Origin: Candidatus Aenigmatarchaeota archaeon
GTDB lineage: Archaea; Aenigmatarchaeota; Aenigmatarchaeia; Aenigmatarchaeales; JACQIB01
Length of the DNA: 18,793 nt
Direction: 5' to 3'
NCBI GenBank assembly: GCA_046760225.1
Contig: JBHIDR010000016.1
Coordinates: forward strand, 1 to 18,793
In this document: positions 78 to 11,784 of the stretch, in pieces
Position numbering within the stretch: the first letter of the stretch is position 1
Layout: each line of letters starts with the position of its first letter
Program-made: the position numbers and the translations under genes
The notes under the pieces: model-generated
The model's database searches: none
What the model was told of the DNA's origin: nothing
What the model saw: only the letters and a program-made list of their open reading frames with translations

Positions 78-1454
78 TTATTCACCTCCTTCCATAATTT
101 CACCATAAACCTTAGAGAGGAATTTCATATAGCCTTCGAGATTTACTGATATCTTTACCTTGTATTTCTCCCTTGCGTCAATTTTCCTCAATGAAAGAGG
201 AAGTTTGGAAAGATTTTTTGCAGCATAATCCCTGGTCTTGTGAATGTCTGGAAGCTCCTTTACAAGCCTTCCGCTGCTCACATACTTCTGAAGAAGTTGT
301 CTCCCTCTCATTACATCATTATCCAAAGCAATTACATCATGATTGATGAAGCCCCCCTCTTCAATCCTGTACACCTGTTTTGTTCCAGGTAGGGTTGCCT
401 TTTCCCTGTCCTCACTCAGCTTTAGCTTGAGTTTGTCATCCAGCTGGGCAAGCTTGTAAACTCCACCAAGGGCAGGCGCGTCCTTTGACAGTATGAGTTC
501 TGTACCTACACCAAATGCATCGATCTTTGCGCCCTTTCTGATAAGGTCGTTTATCTTATACTCGTTCAGATCAGAACTTGCAAATATTATACCGCTTTCC
601 TTCCCAGCAGCATTGAGAATTTCCCTTACCTCCTTGCTGAGCTCTCCCATATCTCCTGAGTCAAGCCTAACTCCCTTTATTTCTCTAGGTAGCCTTGCAG
701 CCTTCTTTGCACCCTCAATAGTATTGTATGTATCAATGAGCGCAACTGTCTCGTTCCCATAAACCTTGAAGTATGCCTCAAATGCCTCCTCTTCATTTGG
801 AAATGACATGACCCAAGAATGCGCATGTGTTCCAAATGACGGTACATCAAACATATAATCTGCAAGAACATTGGAGCTTCCTATTGCGCCTCCGATATAA
901 GCTGCCCTTGCAGCCCTTATAGCAGCTCCAGGATCTGTTCTTCTTGTACCGAATTCCACTACTGCCCTCCCCTGTGCAGCCTCAACACAGCGTGCTGCCT
1001 TGGACGCAATTTTTGTCTGGTGATTGTATGTGCTCAGCAAGTATGTTTCAGCAACCTGAGCCTCTATTATAGGTGCAGTAAGCCTTAACATTGGCTCGTT
1101 TGGGAAGGCTAACTCCCCCTCTGGCATTGCCCAGACATCTCCTGTGAACTTCAAATCCTTCAGATAGCTCCAGAACTCAGGCTTTGCGTTGCGGAACTGC
1201 TTCTTCTTTTTTAGAAAATCTATTGATTCATCATCAAAATTGAATCCTTCAGTCAAGTACCATAATGCCTGCTCAAGACCTGCGACAACAAGGTATGACC
1301 TGTTCTTGGGAAGCTTCCTTACAAAGAGGTCAAATGTAGCAATCTCGTCCTGCTTCTCAAGCTCCCTGTATCCGCGGCTCATAGTGAGCTGGTACATGTC
1401 AGTTGCCAGCATCACCTTGCTTTCAGGTATCAGTCCTGATTTGGGTTTTGTCAT
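78..1454 (-). CDS. pncB: Nicotinate phosphoribosyltransferase
   Basis: 458 aa with NAPRTase motifs: LATDMYQLTM, EFGTRR, GTHAHSW, LIDTYN, GVRLDSGD, FGVGT, ALGGVYKL. Confidence 0.95.
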   Translation of the reverse strand: MTKPKSGLIPESKVMLATDMYQLTMSRGYRELEKQDEIATFDLFVRKLPKNRSYLVVAGLEQALWYLTEGFNFDDESIDFLKKKKQFRNAKPEFWSYLKDLKFTGDVWAMPEGELAFPNEPMLRLTAPIIEAQVAETYLLSTYNHQTKIASKAARCVEAAQGRAVVEFGTRRTDPGAAIRAARAAYIGGAIGSSNVLADYMFDVPSFGTHAHSWVMSFPNEEEAFEAYFKVYGNETVALIDTYNTIEGAKKAARLPREIKGVRLDSGDMGELSKEVREILNAAGKESGIIFASSDLNEYKINDLIRKGAKIDAFGVGTELILSKDAPALGGVYKLAQLDDKLKLKLSEDREKATLPGTKQVYRIEEGGFINHDVIALDNDVMRGRQLLQKYVSSGRLVKELPDIHKTRDYAAKNLSKLPLSLRKIDAREKYKVKISVNLEGYMKFLSKVYGEIMEGGE

Positions 1455-1953: not shown

Positions 1954-2071
1954 TGGTGCGCCGACTGGGATTCGAACCCAGGTTATCAGCTTGCTTCAGC
2001 AAGCTTGGAAGGCATCCCCATGGCTTCTGTTCTGGAAGTCATTTGAGGTCCTACCACTAGACTATCGGCGC
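1954..2071 (-). tRNA. tRNA-Gly(TCC) with two introns (29/30 and 37/38)
   Basis: Mature: GCGCCGA TA GTCT AGTGGTA GGAC C TCAGC CTTCCAA GCTGA TAAC CTGGG TTCGAAT CCCAG TCGGCGC A CCA (74 nt). Introns: 2014-2043 (30 nt, 29/30) and a 14-nt 37/38 intron AGCTTGCTGAAGCA (1992-2005; central helix CTTC/GAAG). Confidence 0.9.
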
Positions 2072-2924
2072 AAATGTCGAACAACATTATTAATTTGCTT
2101 ATTTCTTCCTTTCTAAATATATTTATACTCCATGAATTCATTGTTCTATCTTTATAGATTTTAGCTTTAATATTTATGGAATTTAACATCAGTAAAATAT
2201 CTTCGAGAATCTCTTTTGTACTTTGTTTAATTGCAAATGTCATCCTTCCATCTTTTCTTATGCTTAAAGATCCATCACTGTTAAAAAATCCAAAAATAAA
2301 CGCAACTTTATTTTCTTTTCCAGATTCTAATACAAATTTTGGTACTCTTATTTTATCCTTTTTTTTACCTAAAGGAATATCAAAGATGTTATGAAGAAAT
2401 TCCTTTAACGGCGCAGAGGTGGTTCTAAGTAAGTAATAATTATCGGTCTGTTTAATGCTGCAATTAATACCGAAGATATTCTTTAGTATAAGCTCGGCTT
2501 TCTTTACTTCTAAATGGGATGAAGAGATAAGCAAGCTACCTTTCCTAGAAGTTATACAGCCATCTCCTAAGATTAAGCCCAATAAATAACTCAAAGATGG
2601 GGTTAATTTTTTGGGCAAAATGATAGGCTTACTACTCCTTGAAGAAAACATTATGTTTTTTTCGCATATCTTATCTAAAAAAGAAAGGTCATTAACTTGA
2701 TTACAAATGTAACAAAACCTTTTTATAGAAATTGGTGTATCTTCCCTCCACTTGTATATTAATGATTCATGAATATTCAGCTCTTTGGCTAAATTATTAA
2801 AAGTCTTTTTTGTCTTTATTTTTAAAAGTATATCGCTTACTATTTTATTAATGCCATGAACGTATATTTCTGAGTCAGAGTTTCTTATTTGTATTAAATA
2901 ATTTTTTAACATGTTATCAGCCAA
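1986..2924 (-). CDS. HTH plus double-motif LAGLIDADG endonuclease-like protein overlapping tRNA-Gly
   Basis: Motifs LSYLLGLILGDGCI and AFIFGFFNSDGSL, N-terminal HTH-like LAKELNIHESLIYKW, visibly AT-rich relative to flanks. Start may be ATG at 2912. The stop codon lies within the tRNA-Gly anticodon stem. Confidence 0.85.
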   Translation of the reverse strand: MADNMLKNYLIQIRNSDSEIYVHGINKIVSDILLKIKTKKTFNNLAKELNIHESLIYKWREDTPISIKRFCYICNQVNDLSFLDKICEKNIMFSSRSSKPIILPKKLTPSLSYLLGLILGDGCITSRKGSLLISSSHLEVKKAELILKNIFGINCSIKQTDNYYLLRTTSAPLKEFLHNIFDIPLGKKKDKIRVPKFVLESGKENKVAFIFGFFNSDGSLSIRKDGRMTFAIKQSTKEILEDILLMLNSINIKAKIYKDRTMNSWSINIFRKEEISKLIMLFDICADSLVVGPQMTSRTEAMGMPSKLAEAS

Positions 2925-4259: not shown

Positions 4260-4357
4260 TGGAGCCCCGGGAGGGATTCGAACCCCCGACTTGCCGCTAA
4301 CCCCCGCCCTAACGGGCGCTACAAGGCGGCCGCTCTACCGGGCTGAGCCACCGAGGC
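4260..4357 (-). tRNA. tRNA-Thr(TGT) with a canonical 37/38 intron
   Basis: GCCTCGG/CCGGGGC acceptor, T discriminator, encoded CCA, GCCGC/GCGGC anticodon stem. 21-nt intron at 4299-4319 with a CGCCC/GGGCG hairpin; mature length 77 nt. Confidence 0.93.
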
Positions 4358-7218: not shown

Positions 7219-7970
7219 AGATTTATTTCTATACCAATAGGGCAATGGTCAGAGCCAAGAACATCAGAAAGTATGAAGGCCTTTTTCACTCTCTTGATGA
7301 TGTTTTTTGGTACGAAAATATAATCGATTCGCCATCCAAGGTTCCGCTTGCGGGCATCCCTGTAATAAGGCCACCATGTGTAGTTTCCTGGCTCCTTGTT
7401 AAAGTGCCTGAAGGTGTCAATGAATTTCTTGGACAATATCTTGTCAATCTGCTTCCTCTCTTCAGGCAGGAACATTATGTTATTTTTATTCTCTTTGGGC
7501 CTTGCCAGGTCTATTTCCTTGTGCGCGATATTGAAGTCACCACACAGAACGACATTTTTCTTGAGCTTGTTAAGGTAACTGAAAAAAGCCGTGTACATGT
7601 CCAGTTTATATGGGAGCTTTGCCTTGTCCCTTCTTCCATGAGGGAAGTATAGGTTGAGCAAAGTAAACTTAGGGTATTTCACAACCAAAACACGGCCCTC
7701 TTTGTCAAACCTCTTTATTCCAAGACCATGCTTCACCTCAAGGGGCTTTTCTTTAGAAAGAAGAGCCACGCCACTGTATCCTTTTCTTTCAGCAGGATTC
7801 CAAAAAGAGAAGTAGCCTTTCATATTCTTTAGTTCATCAGACACCTTGTCTGTCTGAGCCTTTGTCTCTTGTATACACAGGATGTCTGGCTTGTCCTTCT
7901 TCAGCCAGTTCAAGAACCCCTTTCTATGAACCGAACGTATTCCATTGACATTCCAAGATAGTATGCGCAT
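7215..7970 (-). CDS. xth: Exodeoxyribonuclease III / AP endonuclease
   Basis: SWNVNG, IQETK, GYSGV, GDFNIAH, WRIDY, GSDHCP. Confidence 0.96.
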   Translation of the reverse strand: MRILSWNVNGIRSVHRKGFLNWLKKDKPDILCIQETKAQTDKVSDELKNMKGYFSFWNPAERKGYSGVALLSKEKPLEVKHGLGIKRFDKEGRVLVVKYPKFTLLNLYFPHGRRDKAKLPYKLDMYTAFFSYLNKLKKNVVLCGDFNIAHKEIDLARPKENKNNIMFLPEERKQIDKILSKKFIDTFRHFNKEPGNYTWWPYYRDARKRNLGWRIDYIFVPKNIIKRVKKAFILSDVLGSDHCPIGIEINL

Positions 7971-7981
7971 AGTATAACCTA

Positions 7982-8173
7982 TGGTGTCAGGGGCGGGCTT
8001 CGAACCCGCGACTTCTGGCCCTCGTTTTAGAGAGTCTCCAGATCTCTCAGCCTTAAGTCATACCAGCTTAGCTGGTCATAACTCATACGCATATGAGTTT
8101 CGCCGGAGGCTCTGGCGCTCTACCAGGTTTCCCGCCATCAGGCCTCAGCCTAAAGGCTCTGAGCCACCCTGAC
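7982..8173 (-). tRNA. Elongator tRNA-Met(CAT) with four introns (15/16, 30/31, 37/38, 45/46)
   Basis: Mature: GTCAGGG TG GCTC AGCCTGGTA GAGC G CCAGA CTCATAA TCTGG AGGTC GCGGG TTCGAAG CCCGC CCCTGAC A CCA (77 nt). Introns: 8128-8158 (31 nt), 8099-8111 (13 nt; CGCC/GGCG), 8044-8091 (48 nt; CTCA/TGAG), 8013-8035 (23 nt; CTGG/CCAG). G1-C72 argues against initiator; Ile2 is not fully excluded. Confidence 0.88.
8044..8091 (-). ncRNA. tRNA-Met 37/38 intron, putative K-turn/box C'D' guide for Cm34
   Basis: Guide TATGAGT (8081-8087), D'-like ATGA (8076-8079), stem CCAGC/GCTGG, 3-nt bulge, C'-like ATGACTT (8055-8061), CTGA at 8047-8050. The N-5 base pairs with C34. Confidence 0.6.
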
Positions 8174-8237
8174 GTTGTTAATAATACGGAAAAAGAACTT
8201 ATAAAAATCATACCTTCTGCCCAGAACTCAAAACTCC

Positions 8238-9077
8238 TTATAAACCCTTATCTAATATGGCCATGTCTTCCTGTTCCAATCTCCAACCCAGTACCCCCAA
8301 GTTTTCTTTAATATGTTCAACATTTGCTGCCTTTACTATGGTAACCACATTCTTTTTAGAAATCAGCCAGTTCAAAGCGATTTGGGCCCGTGTTTTATTG
8401 TATTTTTTCGCCATCCTATCAAGAGTATCAAATCCTGGCTTTGCAAGCAGGCCCAGTGCCAGAGGTCTCCATGCAACAATAAAAATATCATTTTCTTGAC
8501 AATAAGGAATTATCTCAGATTCCATGTTCCTGGTAAATCTTCCCCTATTCCTGACTGATAAATTGTATTCTATCTGGTTAGCAACAATCTTATTTTTGGT
8601 GCACTTTTGTGCCTCTTTTAATTCCTCAACAGAGAAATTGCTTACACCAATATTCTTAACTAATTTTTTATGCATCAAGAAGTCCATTGCTTTCATGGTC
8701 TCTTCAATCGGGATATCTGGATTTGGTCCGTGTATAAGATAAAGATCCATATAATTGGTATTCAGTCTTTTCAAACTCCTTTTTGCCGCGGCAATAACGT
8801 CATCGTACTTTAGATTGATACTTGAAACTTTTGATGTGATGAAGATTTTGCTTCTATCAAACCCCTTTATCGCTTCTCTGACCAATTCTTCAGTGTGCCC
8901 AGCACCATAAATCTCAGCGGTGTCTATGTGAATCATGCCAAGCTCAATAGCTGTTTTTATTGCTGTAATATCTTCTTTGTCATGGGTGGTATCCTTTTCT
9001 CTATTTCCACCCATGCCCCAGGTACCAATGCCAAGCACAGGTAATTTAAAACCGCCTGTGAGTGTTTTGAATTCCAT
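8238..9077 (-). CDS. Aldo/keto reductase
   Basis: LGIGTWGMGG, HIDTAEIYG, DLYLIHGP, IGVSNFS, NQIEY. Start reassigned to ATG 9077; the longer ORF overlaps tRNA-Lys. Confidence 0.93.
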   Translation of the reverse strand: MEFKTLTGGFKLPVLGIGTWGMGGNREKDTTHDKEDITAIKTAIELGMIHIDTAEIYGAGHTEELVREAIKGFDRSKIFITSKVSSINLKYDDVIAAAKRSLKRLNTNYMDLYLIHGPNPDIPIEETMKAMDFLMHKKLVKNIGVSNFSVEELKEAQKCTKNKIVANQIEYNLSVRNRGRFTRNMESEIIPYCQENDIFIVAWRPLALGLLAKPGFDTLDRMAKKYNKTRAQIALNWLISKKNVVTIVKAANVEHIKENLGVLGWRLEQEDMAILDKGL

Positions 9078-9085
9078 AATAATAA

Positions 9086-9281
9086 TGGTGGGCCCAATGG
9101 GATTCGAACCCACGACCCTTCCCGGACAGCTTTGCTGTCTCTCGGTGTCTCCACTCACAGAACCTTACGGTTCTCGTAAAGCTCCTAGAGGTTAAGAGCT
9201 TCACCACCACTTCTGGTTCGAGTGCTCTACCAGATTGCCCGAACCTTTGAATTTTCCAAGGGCTCTCTGAGCTATGGGCCC
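9086..9281 (-). tRNA. tRNA-Lys(CTT) with four introns (15/16, 30/31, 37/38, 43/44)
   Basis: Mature: GGGCCCA TA GCTC AGTCTGGTA GAGC A CTCGG CTCTTAA CCGAG GGGTC GTGGG TTCGAAT CCCAT TGGGCCC A CCA (77 nt). Introns: 9235-9266 (32 nt; GCTC/GGGC), 9200-9218 (19 nt; CACT/GGTG), 9147-9192 (46 nt; CTCT/GGAG), 9119-9140 (22 nt). Confidence 0.88.
9147..9192 (-). ncRNA. tRNA-Lys 37/38 intron, putative K-turn/box C'D' guide for Cm32
   Basis: Guide TAGGAGC (9181-9187) is antisense to G31-A37, then TTT, D'-like ACGA (9174-9177), stem GAACC-GTAA-GGTTC, bulge TGT and GAGT. The N-5 base pairs with C32. Confidence 0.5.
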
Positions 9282-10393: not shown

Positions 10394-10622
10394 GAAACGA
10401 AATACAAAGGGTTTTATTAAAGTAAGAAAATGCGTTAATAAAGAAGGTAAAGAATATTTTCTTTTCTATTATTGTCTGAACAGAAGAAACAAAAAGACAG
10501 GCATGGTTGAAAGAGTATTTGAGCATTTCTTAGGTAAAGAGATACCTTCAAAATTTATGCCTTTATTTGGGAGGTATAGAGGCAAATATAAAAATAGAGT
10601 AAAGGTGAGATTGAATGAGTAA
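10392..10622 (+). CDS. Small basic hypothetical protein, possibly DNA-binding
   Basis: Lys/Arg/aromatic-rich (GKEYFLFYY...HFLGK). GGTGA precedes ATG 10392; overlaps the next gene by 8 nt. Confidence 0.6.
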   Translation: MKRNTKGFIKVRKCVNKEGKEYFLFYYCLNRRNKKTGMVERVFEHFLGKEIPSKFMPLFGRYRGKYKNRVKVRLNE

Positions 10623-11784
10623 AGTAAGCATTCCCCAAAGTATCACAAATTTAAGTAGGTCTCGGTACTCTGTAAATGTAGATTTCTTTAAAAAATGGAG
10701 TTCAAAGATGGCATATATTTTAGGCTTTACTTGTGCTGATGGAACTATTTGGAAATATATATTGAGCTGGGATCTTAAGAGCGATAAAGAATTACTTATA
10801 AAAATTAAAGAAGCCATGGGATCAACTCACCCAATCAAAAGGGGAAAGGCTTCATTCAGGTTAAGAATTTACAATAAAAATATAATCAGTGATTTAAGGC
10901 AGTTGGGGATTACTCCTAATAAAAGTAAAACTACTAAATTTCCTAAAGTTCCAGATAAATTCTTAAAACACTTTATTAGGGGCGTTTTAGATGGTGATGG
11001 TTGGATTTCTATCCACCATAAAAAGAAGGGTTCAAAAGAAATTTCAGTAGGGTTCTCAAGCGGTAGTTATGACTTTTTAGAAACATTAATAAAAATGCTG
11101 AATAAGCAAATTTTACTAACATCCAACAATCTTAGAAAGAAAACTAAAAAAACTAAAAATGGTCTTTCTACATATTATAATCTAGAGTGGTATTCGAAAA
11201 ACGCGTTTAACATTATTTCATACCTATTTAATAATTTGAAAAAAGATGATTTGTCTCTTAAAAGAAAATATAACAAACAACTAAAAGCGAAAGCAATTTA
11301 CAAAGAATATAGTTGTAAAACAAAGCTTTGGAGGAAAATAGAGAAAAGGCATAATACTAGTATCAAAATAATTTTCAATAATTTACTTATTAAAAATAAG
11401 TTATCATGTATCCAAATTGGTGAAAAGTTAGATGTGCATCCATCTACTATATACAGATGGCTAGAAAAAACAGGAGTAAGAGCATCAACCAAAAGGGTAC
11501 CTAAAAAGACTATATTTATAAAATGTCCTGTATGTGGCGAACAGTTTAGAAAATACACTGCTTCTACGAAATCAAAGGCAAAGCGAACTGGAAAATTTAT
11601 AAGATGTACTATTTGTAGAAAGGATATCTATAGGCCACGATGGTGGTTTAAGGTAAATATCCGTCCACTTTACTCTCGGAAATGTCAAGGAAAGTGGCAG
11701 AAAACACGTCTAGAAGCAAACTTACTGCAGCGCTGTCAGACAAGCGGTCGTTTTTTACATTCCATTCAAGGTAATGAAAAATGA
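10615..11784 (+). CDS. Double-motif LAGLIDADG endonuclease-like protein with C-terminal HTH and Cys pairs
   Basis: MAYILGFTCADGTI and HFIRGVLDGDGWI; HTH-like IGEKLDVHPSTIYRWL; CPVC and CTIC; AT-rich. Confidence 0.88.
   Translation: MSKVSIPQSITNLSRSRYSVNVDFFKKWSSKMAYILGFTCADGTIWKYILSWDLKSDKELLIKIKEAMGSTHPIKRGKASFRLRIYNKNIISDLRQLGITPNKSKTTKFPKVPDKFLKHFIRGVLDGDGWISIHHKKKGSKEISVGFSSGSYDFLETLIKMLNKQILLTSNNLRKKTKKTKNGLSTYYNLEWYSKNAFNIISYLFNNLKKDDLSLKRKYNKQLKAKAIYKEYSCKTKLWRKIEKRHNTSIKIIFNNLLIKNKLSCIQIGEKLDVHPSTIYRWLEKTGVRASTKRVPKKTIFIKCPVCGEQFRKYTASTKSKAKRTGKFIRCTICRKDIYRPRWWFKVNIRPLYSRKCQGKWQKTRLEANLLQRCQTSGRFLHSIQGNEK

Follow-up and report, generated by a model that had tools for sequence, protein, structure and literature searches.

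The closest described counterparts of the gene reported here are the tRNA genes of the Thermoproteales (Pyrobaculum, Thermofilum and Caldivirga), which likewise combine canonical and non-canonical bulge-helix-bulge (BHB) introns, relaxed motifs, and neighbouring motifs that are formed only after another intron has left; their heteromeric endonuclease of broad specificity may also have a counterpart here (PMC8450103, PMC4033280). These organisms are Crenarchaeota with reported intron transposition and, in the accessible text of the same two papers, a maximum of three introns per gene, whereas the present locus belongs to a DPANN archaeon in which four introns occur in one gene (five in tRNA-Ile(UAU)) and no similar intron copies were found elsewhere in the genome. 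Disrupted tRNA genes are also described for the same superphylum, in Nanoarchaeum with its alpha-beta endonuclease and in ARMAN-2 with its epsilon endonuclease, and they resemble our case in that non-canonical introns accompany an endonuclease with extra loops; the available parts of these reports mention no gene with more than three introns (PMC5829648, PMC3239211). Among eukaryotes, the nuclear tRNA genes of Cyanidioschyzon merolae share with our gene ectopic introns (up to three, which is also the maximum there) and relaxed motifs, and the removal ordered by stability that is predicted for our gene was demonstrated by experiment in that organism (PMC3728597). The tRNA genes of the Asgard Atabeyarchaeia and Freyarchaeia are intron-rich too: more than 90% of them are interrupted, multiple introns occur in over half, and non-canonical sites are frequent. 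The main text of that study states no maximum per gene, and four or more introns are possible there (PMC11291895).

For a single tRNA gene, the limit stated by Fujishima and Kanai (2014) is 'a maximum of three introns' (PMC4033280). A preliminary description of the present locus had named three introns as the usual upper limit and had advised a literature check, and this caution was well placed: the cited papers do give three, and no higher archaeal count came to light. In the openly accessible full texts searched, no tRNA gene of an archaeon was reported to be interrupted by four or five introns. As far as the consulted portions of the reviews and of the paper on the standard tRNA finder go, the four introns described below are one above the published maximum of three. 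The gene is an extreme case of known BHB splicing, and the mechanism itself is already known.

The window, that is, the whole stretch of 18,793 nucleotides that was analysed, comes from a genome of 0.85 Mb in 83 contigs that is 83% complete. The host is probably a small-genome DPANN archaeon of a hydrothermal vent, belonging to the Aenigmatarchaeota, a placement towards which the nearest Atlas cluster of its endonuclease also points. The nicotinate phosphoribosyltransferase encoded in the window was uninformative in this respect, its relatives being mostly bacterial, with two Woesearchaeota records. We conclude, with a rough probability of 0.88, that the locus is a working elongator tRNA-Met(CAU) gene with four introns spliced by enzymes, the five exons being joined by RtcB. 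The coordinates of its predicted parts are collected in Table 1. The TATA-box-like element upstream, TTTTTATAA, is what we take to be an archaeal TATA box, and hence a putative promoter of the tRNA-Met gene.

Table 1. Predicted parts of the tRNA-Met(CAU) gene and its upstream element; positions are those of the window.
Feature	Position	Strand	Remarks
Whole tRNA-Met(CAU) gene	7982..8173	-	192 nt; encoded 3' CCA at 7984-7982; sequence read, spliced product folded
Exon 1	8159..8173	-	15 nt; acceptor 5' strand, U8 G9, D-stem 5' strand, A14 G15
Intron 1	8128..8158	-	31 nt; D-loop, tRNA position 15/16
Exon 2	8112..8127	-	16 nt; remaining D-loop, D-stem 3' strand, G26, positions 27-30
Intron 2	8099..8111	-	13 nt; tRNA position 30/31
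Exon 3	8092..8098	-	7-nt micro-exon; A31 and anticodon-loop positions 32-37, anticodon CAU included
Intron 3	8044..8091	-	48 nt; canonical position 37/38
Exon 4	8036..8043	-	8-nt micro-exon; A38, anticodon-stem 3' strand, A44 G45
Intron 4	8013..8035	-	23 nt; variable loop, tRNA position 45/46
Exon 5	7982..8012	-	31 nt; G46 U47 C48, T arm, acceptor 3' strand, A73, CCA
TATA-box-like element TTTTTATAA	8199..8207	-	spans nucleotides -34 to -26 relative to the mature 5' end

The inserts add up to 115 nt (31+13+48+23) and the exons to 77 nt (15+16+7+8+31). Removal of the four inserts restores a canonical cloverleaf, and ARAGORN calls the spliced 77-nt product tRNA-Met(cat). In this product, the acceptor stem (7/7) and the T arm (5/5) are completely paired, as are the D and anticodon stems taken together (9/9), the anticodon loop reads CTCATAA and the variable loop is AGGTC. 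The preliminary description had arrived at a minus-strand gene with the same coordinates and ends, four introns making up 115 of its 192 nt, a regenerated AGGTC variable loop and a 77-nt product with a CAT anticodon; all of this holds in the present analysis. Three matters go beyond that description, namely the sibling genes with multiple introns, the distinction of Met from Ile2, and a proper motif in the weakest intron, that of the D-loop.

According to the rule that Marck and Grosjean are said to have formulated in 2003, an archaeal tRNA intron is recognised by a central helix of 4 bp flanked by opposed 3-nt bulges, with cleavage after the second base of each bulge. All four introns are in this register, with both cuts after the second bulge base; the central helices are fully paired (4/4) in three introns and paired at three of four positions in the other, and a flanking helix of at least 2 bp is present in every case (h'=3 for intron 1, h=3 for intron 2, h'=2 for intron 3 and h'=5 for intron 4). 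The three perfect central helices proposed earlier (CGCC/GGCG, CTCA/TGAG and CTGG/CCAG) were all recovered, and the remaining one is GCTC/GGGA. The latter belongs to intron 1, where GCUC/GGGA has a terminal mismatch and one G-U pair, the bulges are AG|A and AA|C, the inner helix GCC/GGC comprises 3 bp and the outer helix at most 1 bp; the local fold of this intron shows the GCC/GGC helix together with the AGA bulge. Intron 2 combines the central helix CGCC/GGCG with the outer helix GAG/CUC, and its 5' cut lies in a 9-nt loop, which makes it a relaxed motif. In intron 3, the central helix is CUCA/UGAG and the outer helix is the anticodon stem itself. Intron 4 has the central helix CUGG/CCAG and an inner helix of 5 bp (CUCUC/GAGGG), and CCAGA in its 3' part is a copy of the 5' strand of the anticodon stem.

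A C/D guide RNA sits in the euryarchaeal pre-tRNA-Trp intron, with RUGAUGA as the C box, CUGA as the D box and a guide spacing of 12 nt. Intron 3 was considered as a guide of this kind and rejected: inspection by eye found CUGA near the 3' end, but neither RUGAUGA nor a fitting spacing, and no Rfam family was assigned. Rfam small-RNA families were also not found in the f2 orthologue loci.

Standard tools do not recognise the gene in its genomic form. Default ARAGORN calls a single tRNA in the window (4260-4357), and Rfam at the gathering threshold calls two (4263-4357 and 1957-2071), neither program reporting the present locus. The failure of RF00005 on the genomic sequence is expected because of the 115 nt of inserts. 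A permissive Rfam scan (E<=10) of positions 7900-8260 returned only T-arm fragments and no small-RNA family. When introns are allowed, ARAGORN finds the exact ends of the gene, but it forces one intron of 110 nt, and the Leu(gag) identity that it assigns is wrong.

The anatomy was examined with a custom search, in which a cloverleaf is threaded through the sequence and jumps are allowed only at a fitting splice motif. Applied to the gene, it gave zero solutions with fewer than four introns, and the top four-intron solution is the anatomy reported in Table 1. As a control, the acceptor and T arms were kept and the interior was dinucleotide-shuffled (n=150). Any solution with up to four introns and 9/9 stem pairs was obtained for 3 of 150 shuffled sequences, and none of the 150 also attained the mean motif score of the real gene. 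With relaxed anchors, the search yields four- and five-'intron' solutions in non-tRNA DNA as well. It is thus permissive, and the weight of the argument lies with the comparisons of orthologues and strains. A survey of the genome with relaxed anchors gave nine solutions, the majority of which were noise or known genes with a different 5' end, and nine candidates were skipped; its use as a census of tRNA genes was dropped, since the search over-calls without strict anchors.

The borders of intron 1 are where the anatomy could most readily differ, although the chance that a real gene has been given a wrong intron count or wrong borders is small. In such a case, intron 1 would consist of two pieces of 18 and 13 nt removed sequentially, which makes five excisions in total, or would be cut at index 16-45 instead of 15-46. 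The first 18 nt do form a half-motif of their own (CUC/GAG, bulge AG, helix AGCC/GGCU), the last 13 nt are similar in length and in their AA end to the 13-nt mini-introns at position 30/31 in this gene and in the orthologue of genome G037, and the summed motif scores are higher when five introns and a micro-exon of 2 nt are assumed. On the other hand, an exon of 2 nt is implausible, and the whole 31-nt intron forms a single motif with the GCC/GGC inner helix, a design that recurs in the tRNA-Lys gene nearby, where the D-loop intron measures 32 nt. Shifting both borders of intron 1 by a single base (index 16-45) ties with index 15-46 in score and would produce an 11-nt D-loop. In contrast, only the cuts at 15-46 give the 9-nt D-loop AGCCUGGUA common to the products of the G001 and G005 orthologues, and they obey the pattern of starting with A and ending with AA, which is true of 14/14 non-canonical introns examined. 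Splitting intron 1 into two pieces, or assuming mini-introns of 8 nt in the D-loop, was rejected as less parsimonious and in conflict with the orthologous D-loop.

To find orthologues, the hairpin CUCAUA...UAUGAG, to which the anticodon loop and the beginning of the canonical intron both contribute, was used as the search key. Of the 42 genomes available for the order, 28 have this hairpin, and 25 of these 28 loci contain a recognisable orthologue (absent from L060, L062 and L063). One intron is found in 11 of the 25 genes, two in 10, three in two and four in two. Because these orthologues were chosen by the motif of the 37/38 intron, its presence in all of them is circular. For four genomes (G000, which is the host, G037, G022 and G019), the counts were set by eye and motif search; here the aligner had mis-joined introns 3 and 4, as the anticodon stem of the query differed.

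The orthologue of the same genus (G001) contains the 37/38 intron only, and its product is identical at 68 of 77 positions to the one predicted here, neither the D-loop nor the variable loop being different; the D-arm sequence of our exon 1 is also identical in this one-intron gene. G037 has three introns, at 30/31, 37/38 and 45/46, and thus lacks intron 1. Its 30/31 intron is again 13 nt long, with the helix CGCU/GGCG as compared with CGCC/GGCG here, and its counterpart of intron 4 has the helix CUAG/CUAG as compared with CUGG/CCAG, a difference that covaries with the anticodon stem of G037. In G005, a member of the same family, four introns are located at about 14/15, 22/23, 37/38 and 59/60, with three perfect helices. 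With the tRNA model of Rfam, orthologues with one intron reach 55 bits and the one with three introns reaches 50 bits, whereas neither four-intron gene is recognised.

Strain variants provide a second comparison. The locus occurs in four sequencing runs, all of them DNA and from one hydrothermal-vent study, and in zero RNA runs. The gene is identical in two of the matching contigs (X1, possibly the source, and X3), whereas two others (X2, 141 nt, and X4, 1702 nt) are variants. All 15 substituted positions of X2 and X4, together with one 2-nt insertion, lie in introns 2-4 and none in the 77 exon positions, these positions being drawn from two contigs of one study and not constituting independent events. 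In X4, the eight substitutions found across the 801 bases compared are all in introns 3 and 4. Three pairs have changed on both sides with pairing kept (index 142-151, 100-108 and 102-106): a U-A pair of the inner helix of intron 4 has become C-G, and in the internal hairpin of intron 3 an A-U pair has become G-C and a C-G pair U-A. Three further intron changes retain pairing through G-U. This pattern rules out an assembly artefact, and it is as expected if the exons are strongly constrained and the introns are free to change provided that their helices hold.

The same data bear on whether the locus could be a decaying or silent copy of a tRNA gene that merely looks spliceable, for which we see very little probability. 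In favour of such a pseudogene, one may cite the zero RNA runs, the imperfect helix of intron 1 and the chance that an incomplete genome holds another Met gene. However, the D and anticodon stems (9/9) and the acceptor stem (7/7) of the product pair perfectly, the exons show 0 changes against 15 in the introns, some of them compensatory, orthologues are conserved across the order, and the 23 tRNA genes identified with strict anchors in this genome (83% complete) include no second elongator Met gene. A working gene remains our preferred reading. A 128-nt tRNA-like candidate (C6) that contains CTCATGA might be a second elongator Met gene. An initiator-like gene (C18; A1:U72, 170 nt) was set aside, as its CUCAUAA loop could not be rebuilt and the search solutions were poor.

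Initiator tRNAs are marked by A1:U72 and by an anticodon stem whose lower end consists of three G:C pairs, while elongators have G1:C72. In the cloverleaf, our product has G1-C72 and the anticodon stem CCAGA/UCUGG, and it is therefore not an initiator. Archaea usually have three CAU tRNAs, all of which anticodon-based callers name Met, and one of them, tRNA-Ile2(CAU), depends on TiaS, the agmatidine synthetase. This habit of labelling would allow our gene to encode tRNA-Ile2, in which CAU is modified to agmatidine-AU and AUA is decoded instead of AUG, but the probability of this is close to nil: the TiaS_FLD domain (PF08489) was detected in none of the 42 genomes searched for this order, including the host and 15 genomes that are at least 90% complete, with four archaeal controls positive, a tRNA-Ile(UAU) gene for AUA is present in the host and conserved across the order, and the acceptor stem GUCAGGG is unlike the GGGCGGG of both Ile genes. 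An Ile2 identity being unlikely, we assign the gene to elongator Met.

The genome encodes enzymes that could process such a transcript. Two EndA paralogues are located on contig C2 with one gene between them, both containing PF01974 and PF02778, and many genomes of the order have the two genes next to each other; an RtcB gene is present in the host genome as well. Of the catalytic triad known from M. jannaschii, the downstream paralogue retains Tyr and His, with a Lys-rich insert of seven residues between them, while the upstream paralogue lacks the catalytic His. The best match of the downstream (alpha) EndA among solved structures is 3iey_A (E 4e-35), presumably the Nanoarchaeum endonuclease, which has a Lys-rich insert too. 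Judging by these sequences, the pair resembles the catalytic and structural subunits of an enzyme of the alpha-beta heterotetramer type. At the position aligned to the catalytic Lys of M. jannaschii, both paralogues have Ala, suggesting that the chemistry of the enzyme is not fully textbook. The alpha subunits of the order differ in this residue from the DPANN systems described before, Ala or Ser being found in 24/24 alpha orthologues of the order listed. Endonucleases of the alpha-beta type have been linked to relaxed splice motifs in the available text of one study (PMC5829648).

From the anatomy, the motifs, their conservation and the enzyme genes observed here, we infer the following course of transcription, cutting and intron removal. 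The gene would be transcribed as a precursor of ~190 nt, and the tRNA-splicing endonuclease would cut in the two 3-nt bulges of each BHB motif. Since the motifs share bases, the order of removal is partly forced. In the outer helix of intron 2, GAG of the D-stem pairs with C32-C34, the bases needed by the central helix of intron 3; likewise, C40-G43 belong to the outer helix of intron 3 but also take part in the central helix of intron 4. The outer helix of intron 3 grows from 1 bp in the unspliced gene to 5 bp when intron 2 is removed. The full motif of intron 3 would thus form only once introns 2 and 4 are gone, and we infer that these two introns are removed first, with intron 1 leaving independently, and the canonical intron 3 last. 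RtcB ligase would then seal the five exons. Precedents for such an order are available: RT-PCR in Cyanidioschyzon merolae shows that intron removal is ordered and follows motif stability, as far as the accessible account goes (PMC3728597), and the consulted part of a study on the Thermoproteales describes an ordered removal of neighbouring tRNA introns (PMC8450103). In total, a mature tRNA-Met would require eight precise cuts and four ligations.

The tRNA-Met gene is not isolated, as at least three further tRNA genes of this genome contain four or five introns. One of them, tRNA-Lys(CUU), lies 900 bases off within the window (9281..9086 on the minus strand) and has four introns at 15/16, 30/31, 37/38 and 43/44; its 32-nt D-loop intron has the same position and design as intron 1 of tRNA-Met. 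Further cases come from other contigs: four introns interrupt tRNA-Arg(UCU), and five interrupt tRNA-Ile(UAU). One-intron orthologues from nine more genomes of the order closely match the product predicted for this Ile gene, whose orthologue in G020 contains four introns.

Concerning the origin of these introns, a search for copies elsewhere in the genome with blastn-short gave self hits and chance-level matches of 10-13 nt only, and there is consequently no sign of recent intron transposition. It is conceivable, though in our estimate rather unlikely, that a burst of intron gain in this archaeal family is raising the number to four or five per gene, the highest counts encountered, and that the introns are not neutral debris. 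The observations that may be cited for this reading are the A and AA ends, the copies of stem strands that force a fixed splicing order, and the much faster change of introns than of flanking DNA between strains with helices kept. This pattern would fit a dedicated insertion mechanism, for example a reversed endonuclease-ligase reaction at A/AA sites, or alternatively selection on the introns, for instance as shields of tRNA genes against integrating elements or as folding checkpoints.

Whatever their origin, such introns affect how these genomes are read. The tRNA affected here is an essential one, encoded by the sole elongator Met gene identified among the 23 anchored genes. Since default ARAGORN and Rfam fail on the gene, genomes of this kind seem to be without essential tRNAs. 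For new DPANN genomes, the accessible text of an earlier study already notes that the predicted tRNA sets are incomplete and urges manual curation (PMC5829648). The annotation of tRNAs in DPANN archaea needs iterative searching that allows for multiple introns. Within the order, the versions of one gene with one, two, three and four introns form a natural series for studying intron gain and loss, and it could reveal to what extent substrate rules can be relaxed by a two-subunit endonuclease whose active site has an unusual residue.

Besides the elongator tRNA-Met(CAU) gene, the window and the rest of its genome (G000) hold further multi-intron tRNA genes, which were analysed with a search that threads the cloverleaf and jumps only where a bulge-helix-bulge motif fits. 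The tRNA-Lys(CUU) gene of the window is interrupted at 15/16, 30/31, 37/38 and 43/44 by introns of 32, 19, 46 and 22 nt, respectively, three of which have perfect central helices while the remaining one forms 3 of 4 pairs. The tRNA-Ile(UAU) gene carries introns of 23, 19, 14, 32 and 30 nt, with a perfect central helix in four of the five. The tRNA predicted from it is a close match to orthologues with a single intron from nine genomes of the order, and the tRNA-Ile(GAU) gene on contig C12 has an identical first intron. In the tRNA-Arg(UCU) gene, introns of 20, 30, 18 and 35 nt lie at 8/9, in the D-loop, at 30/31 and at 37/38, the canonical one having been overlooked by the automatic motif search because its helix contains an internal mismatch.

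Features in the window and elsewhere in its genome (G000; C, contig; L, locus)
Feature	Location	Strand	Details
tRNA-Lys(CUU) gene	window 9086-9281	minus	four introns; 196 nt including CCA
One-intron tRNA gene	window 4260-4357	minus	21-nt intron at 37/38
LAGLIDADG homing-endonuclease-like ORF	window 1986-2924	minus	
LAGLIDADG homing-endonuclease-like ORF	window 10615-11784	plus	
Nicotinate phosphoribosyltransferase gene	window 78-1454	minus	
tRNA-Ile(UAU) gene	G000 C4:24635-24830 (L122)	minus	five introns
tRNA-Arg(UCU) gene	G000 C2:34289-34469 (L123)	minus	four introns
Initiator-like gene	G000 C18:16738-16907 (L124)		170 nt; A1:U72 pair; about four inserts
tRNA-like gene	G000 C6:21468-21595		128 nt; acceptor stem and T arm perfect; CTCATGA heptamer
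Splicing-endonuclease paralogues	G000 C2, L009:1297-1788 and L009:2332-2862		

Two genes did not yield to this kind of analysis: a CUCAUAA anticodon loop could not be reconstructed from the initiator-like gene, and the combined motif and cloverleaf search returned no solution for the tRNA-like gene on contig C6. ARAGORN with introns allowed wrongly called the tRNA-Lys(CUU) gene Ser(act). The one-intron gene of the window is labelled Tyr(gta) by default ARAGORN; intron-allowed ARAGORN, the Rfam alignment and our own search all give the anticodon UGU (Thr).

The non-canonical introns examined in these G000 genes share a simple end rule: all 14 have A as their first base and AA as their last two, which corresponds to bulges of the form NN|A and AA|N. 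This rule is broken by some of the four canonical 37/38 introns of the same genes. Where the M. jannaschii enzyme has its catalytic Lys, the aligned residue in both splicing-endonuclease paralogues is Ala, and the orthologues of the alpha subunit across the order (L092-L121) read RLAHNIR(A/S). In the alpha subunit, the catalytic Tyr and His are separated by a Lys-rich insert of 7 residues.

Among the remaining genes of the window, the minus-strand LAGLIDADG-like ORF overlaps the 5' part of a two-intron tRNA-Gly(UCC) gene (2071..1957). In the genome collection, the closest relatives of the nicotinate phosphoribosyltransferase are mostly bacterial (37-49% identity), a distribution that may reflect gene transfer.

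Turning to orthologues of the tRNA-Met gene, that of another genus of the family (L082, genome G005, contig C16) also has four introns within a gene of 253 nt, at sites (about 14/15, 22/23, 37/38 and 59/60) that differ from those of the gene in the window. In four other genomes of the order (G022, G007, G019 and G014; loci L084-L087), the canonical intron measures 68-70 nt and, read by eye, contains GUGAUGA and CUGA spaced 12 nt apart, followed by a UAUGAA-like box with a second CUGA 12 nt further on. Such an arrangement is that of a C/D box guide RNA; Rfam gave no matching family.

At the strain level, introns 3 and 4 of the tRNA-Met gene (window 8013-8091) are hot spots of variation in X2 and X4, two DNA runs of one hydrothermal-vent study. 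Within the 801 bases compared for the X4 contig, all eight substitutions lie in intron 3 or intron 4, and the coding sequence on either side is unchanged.
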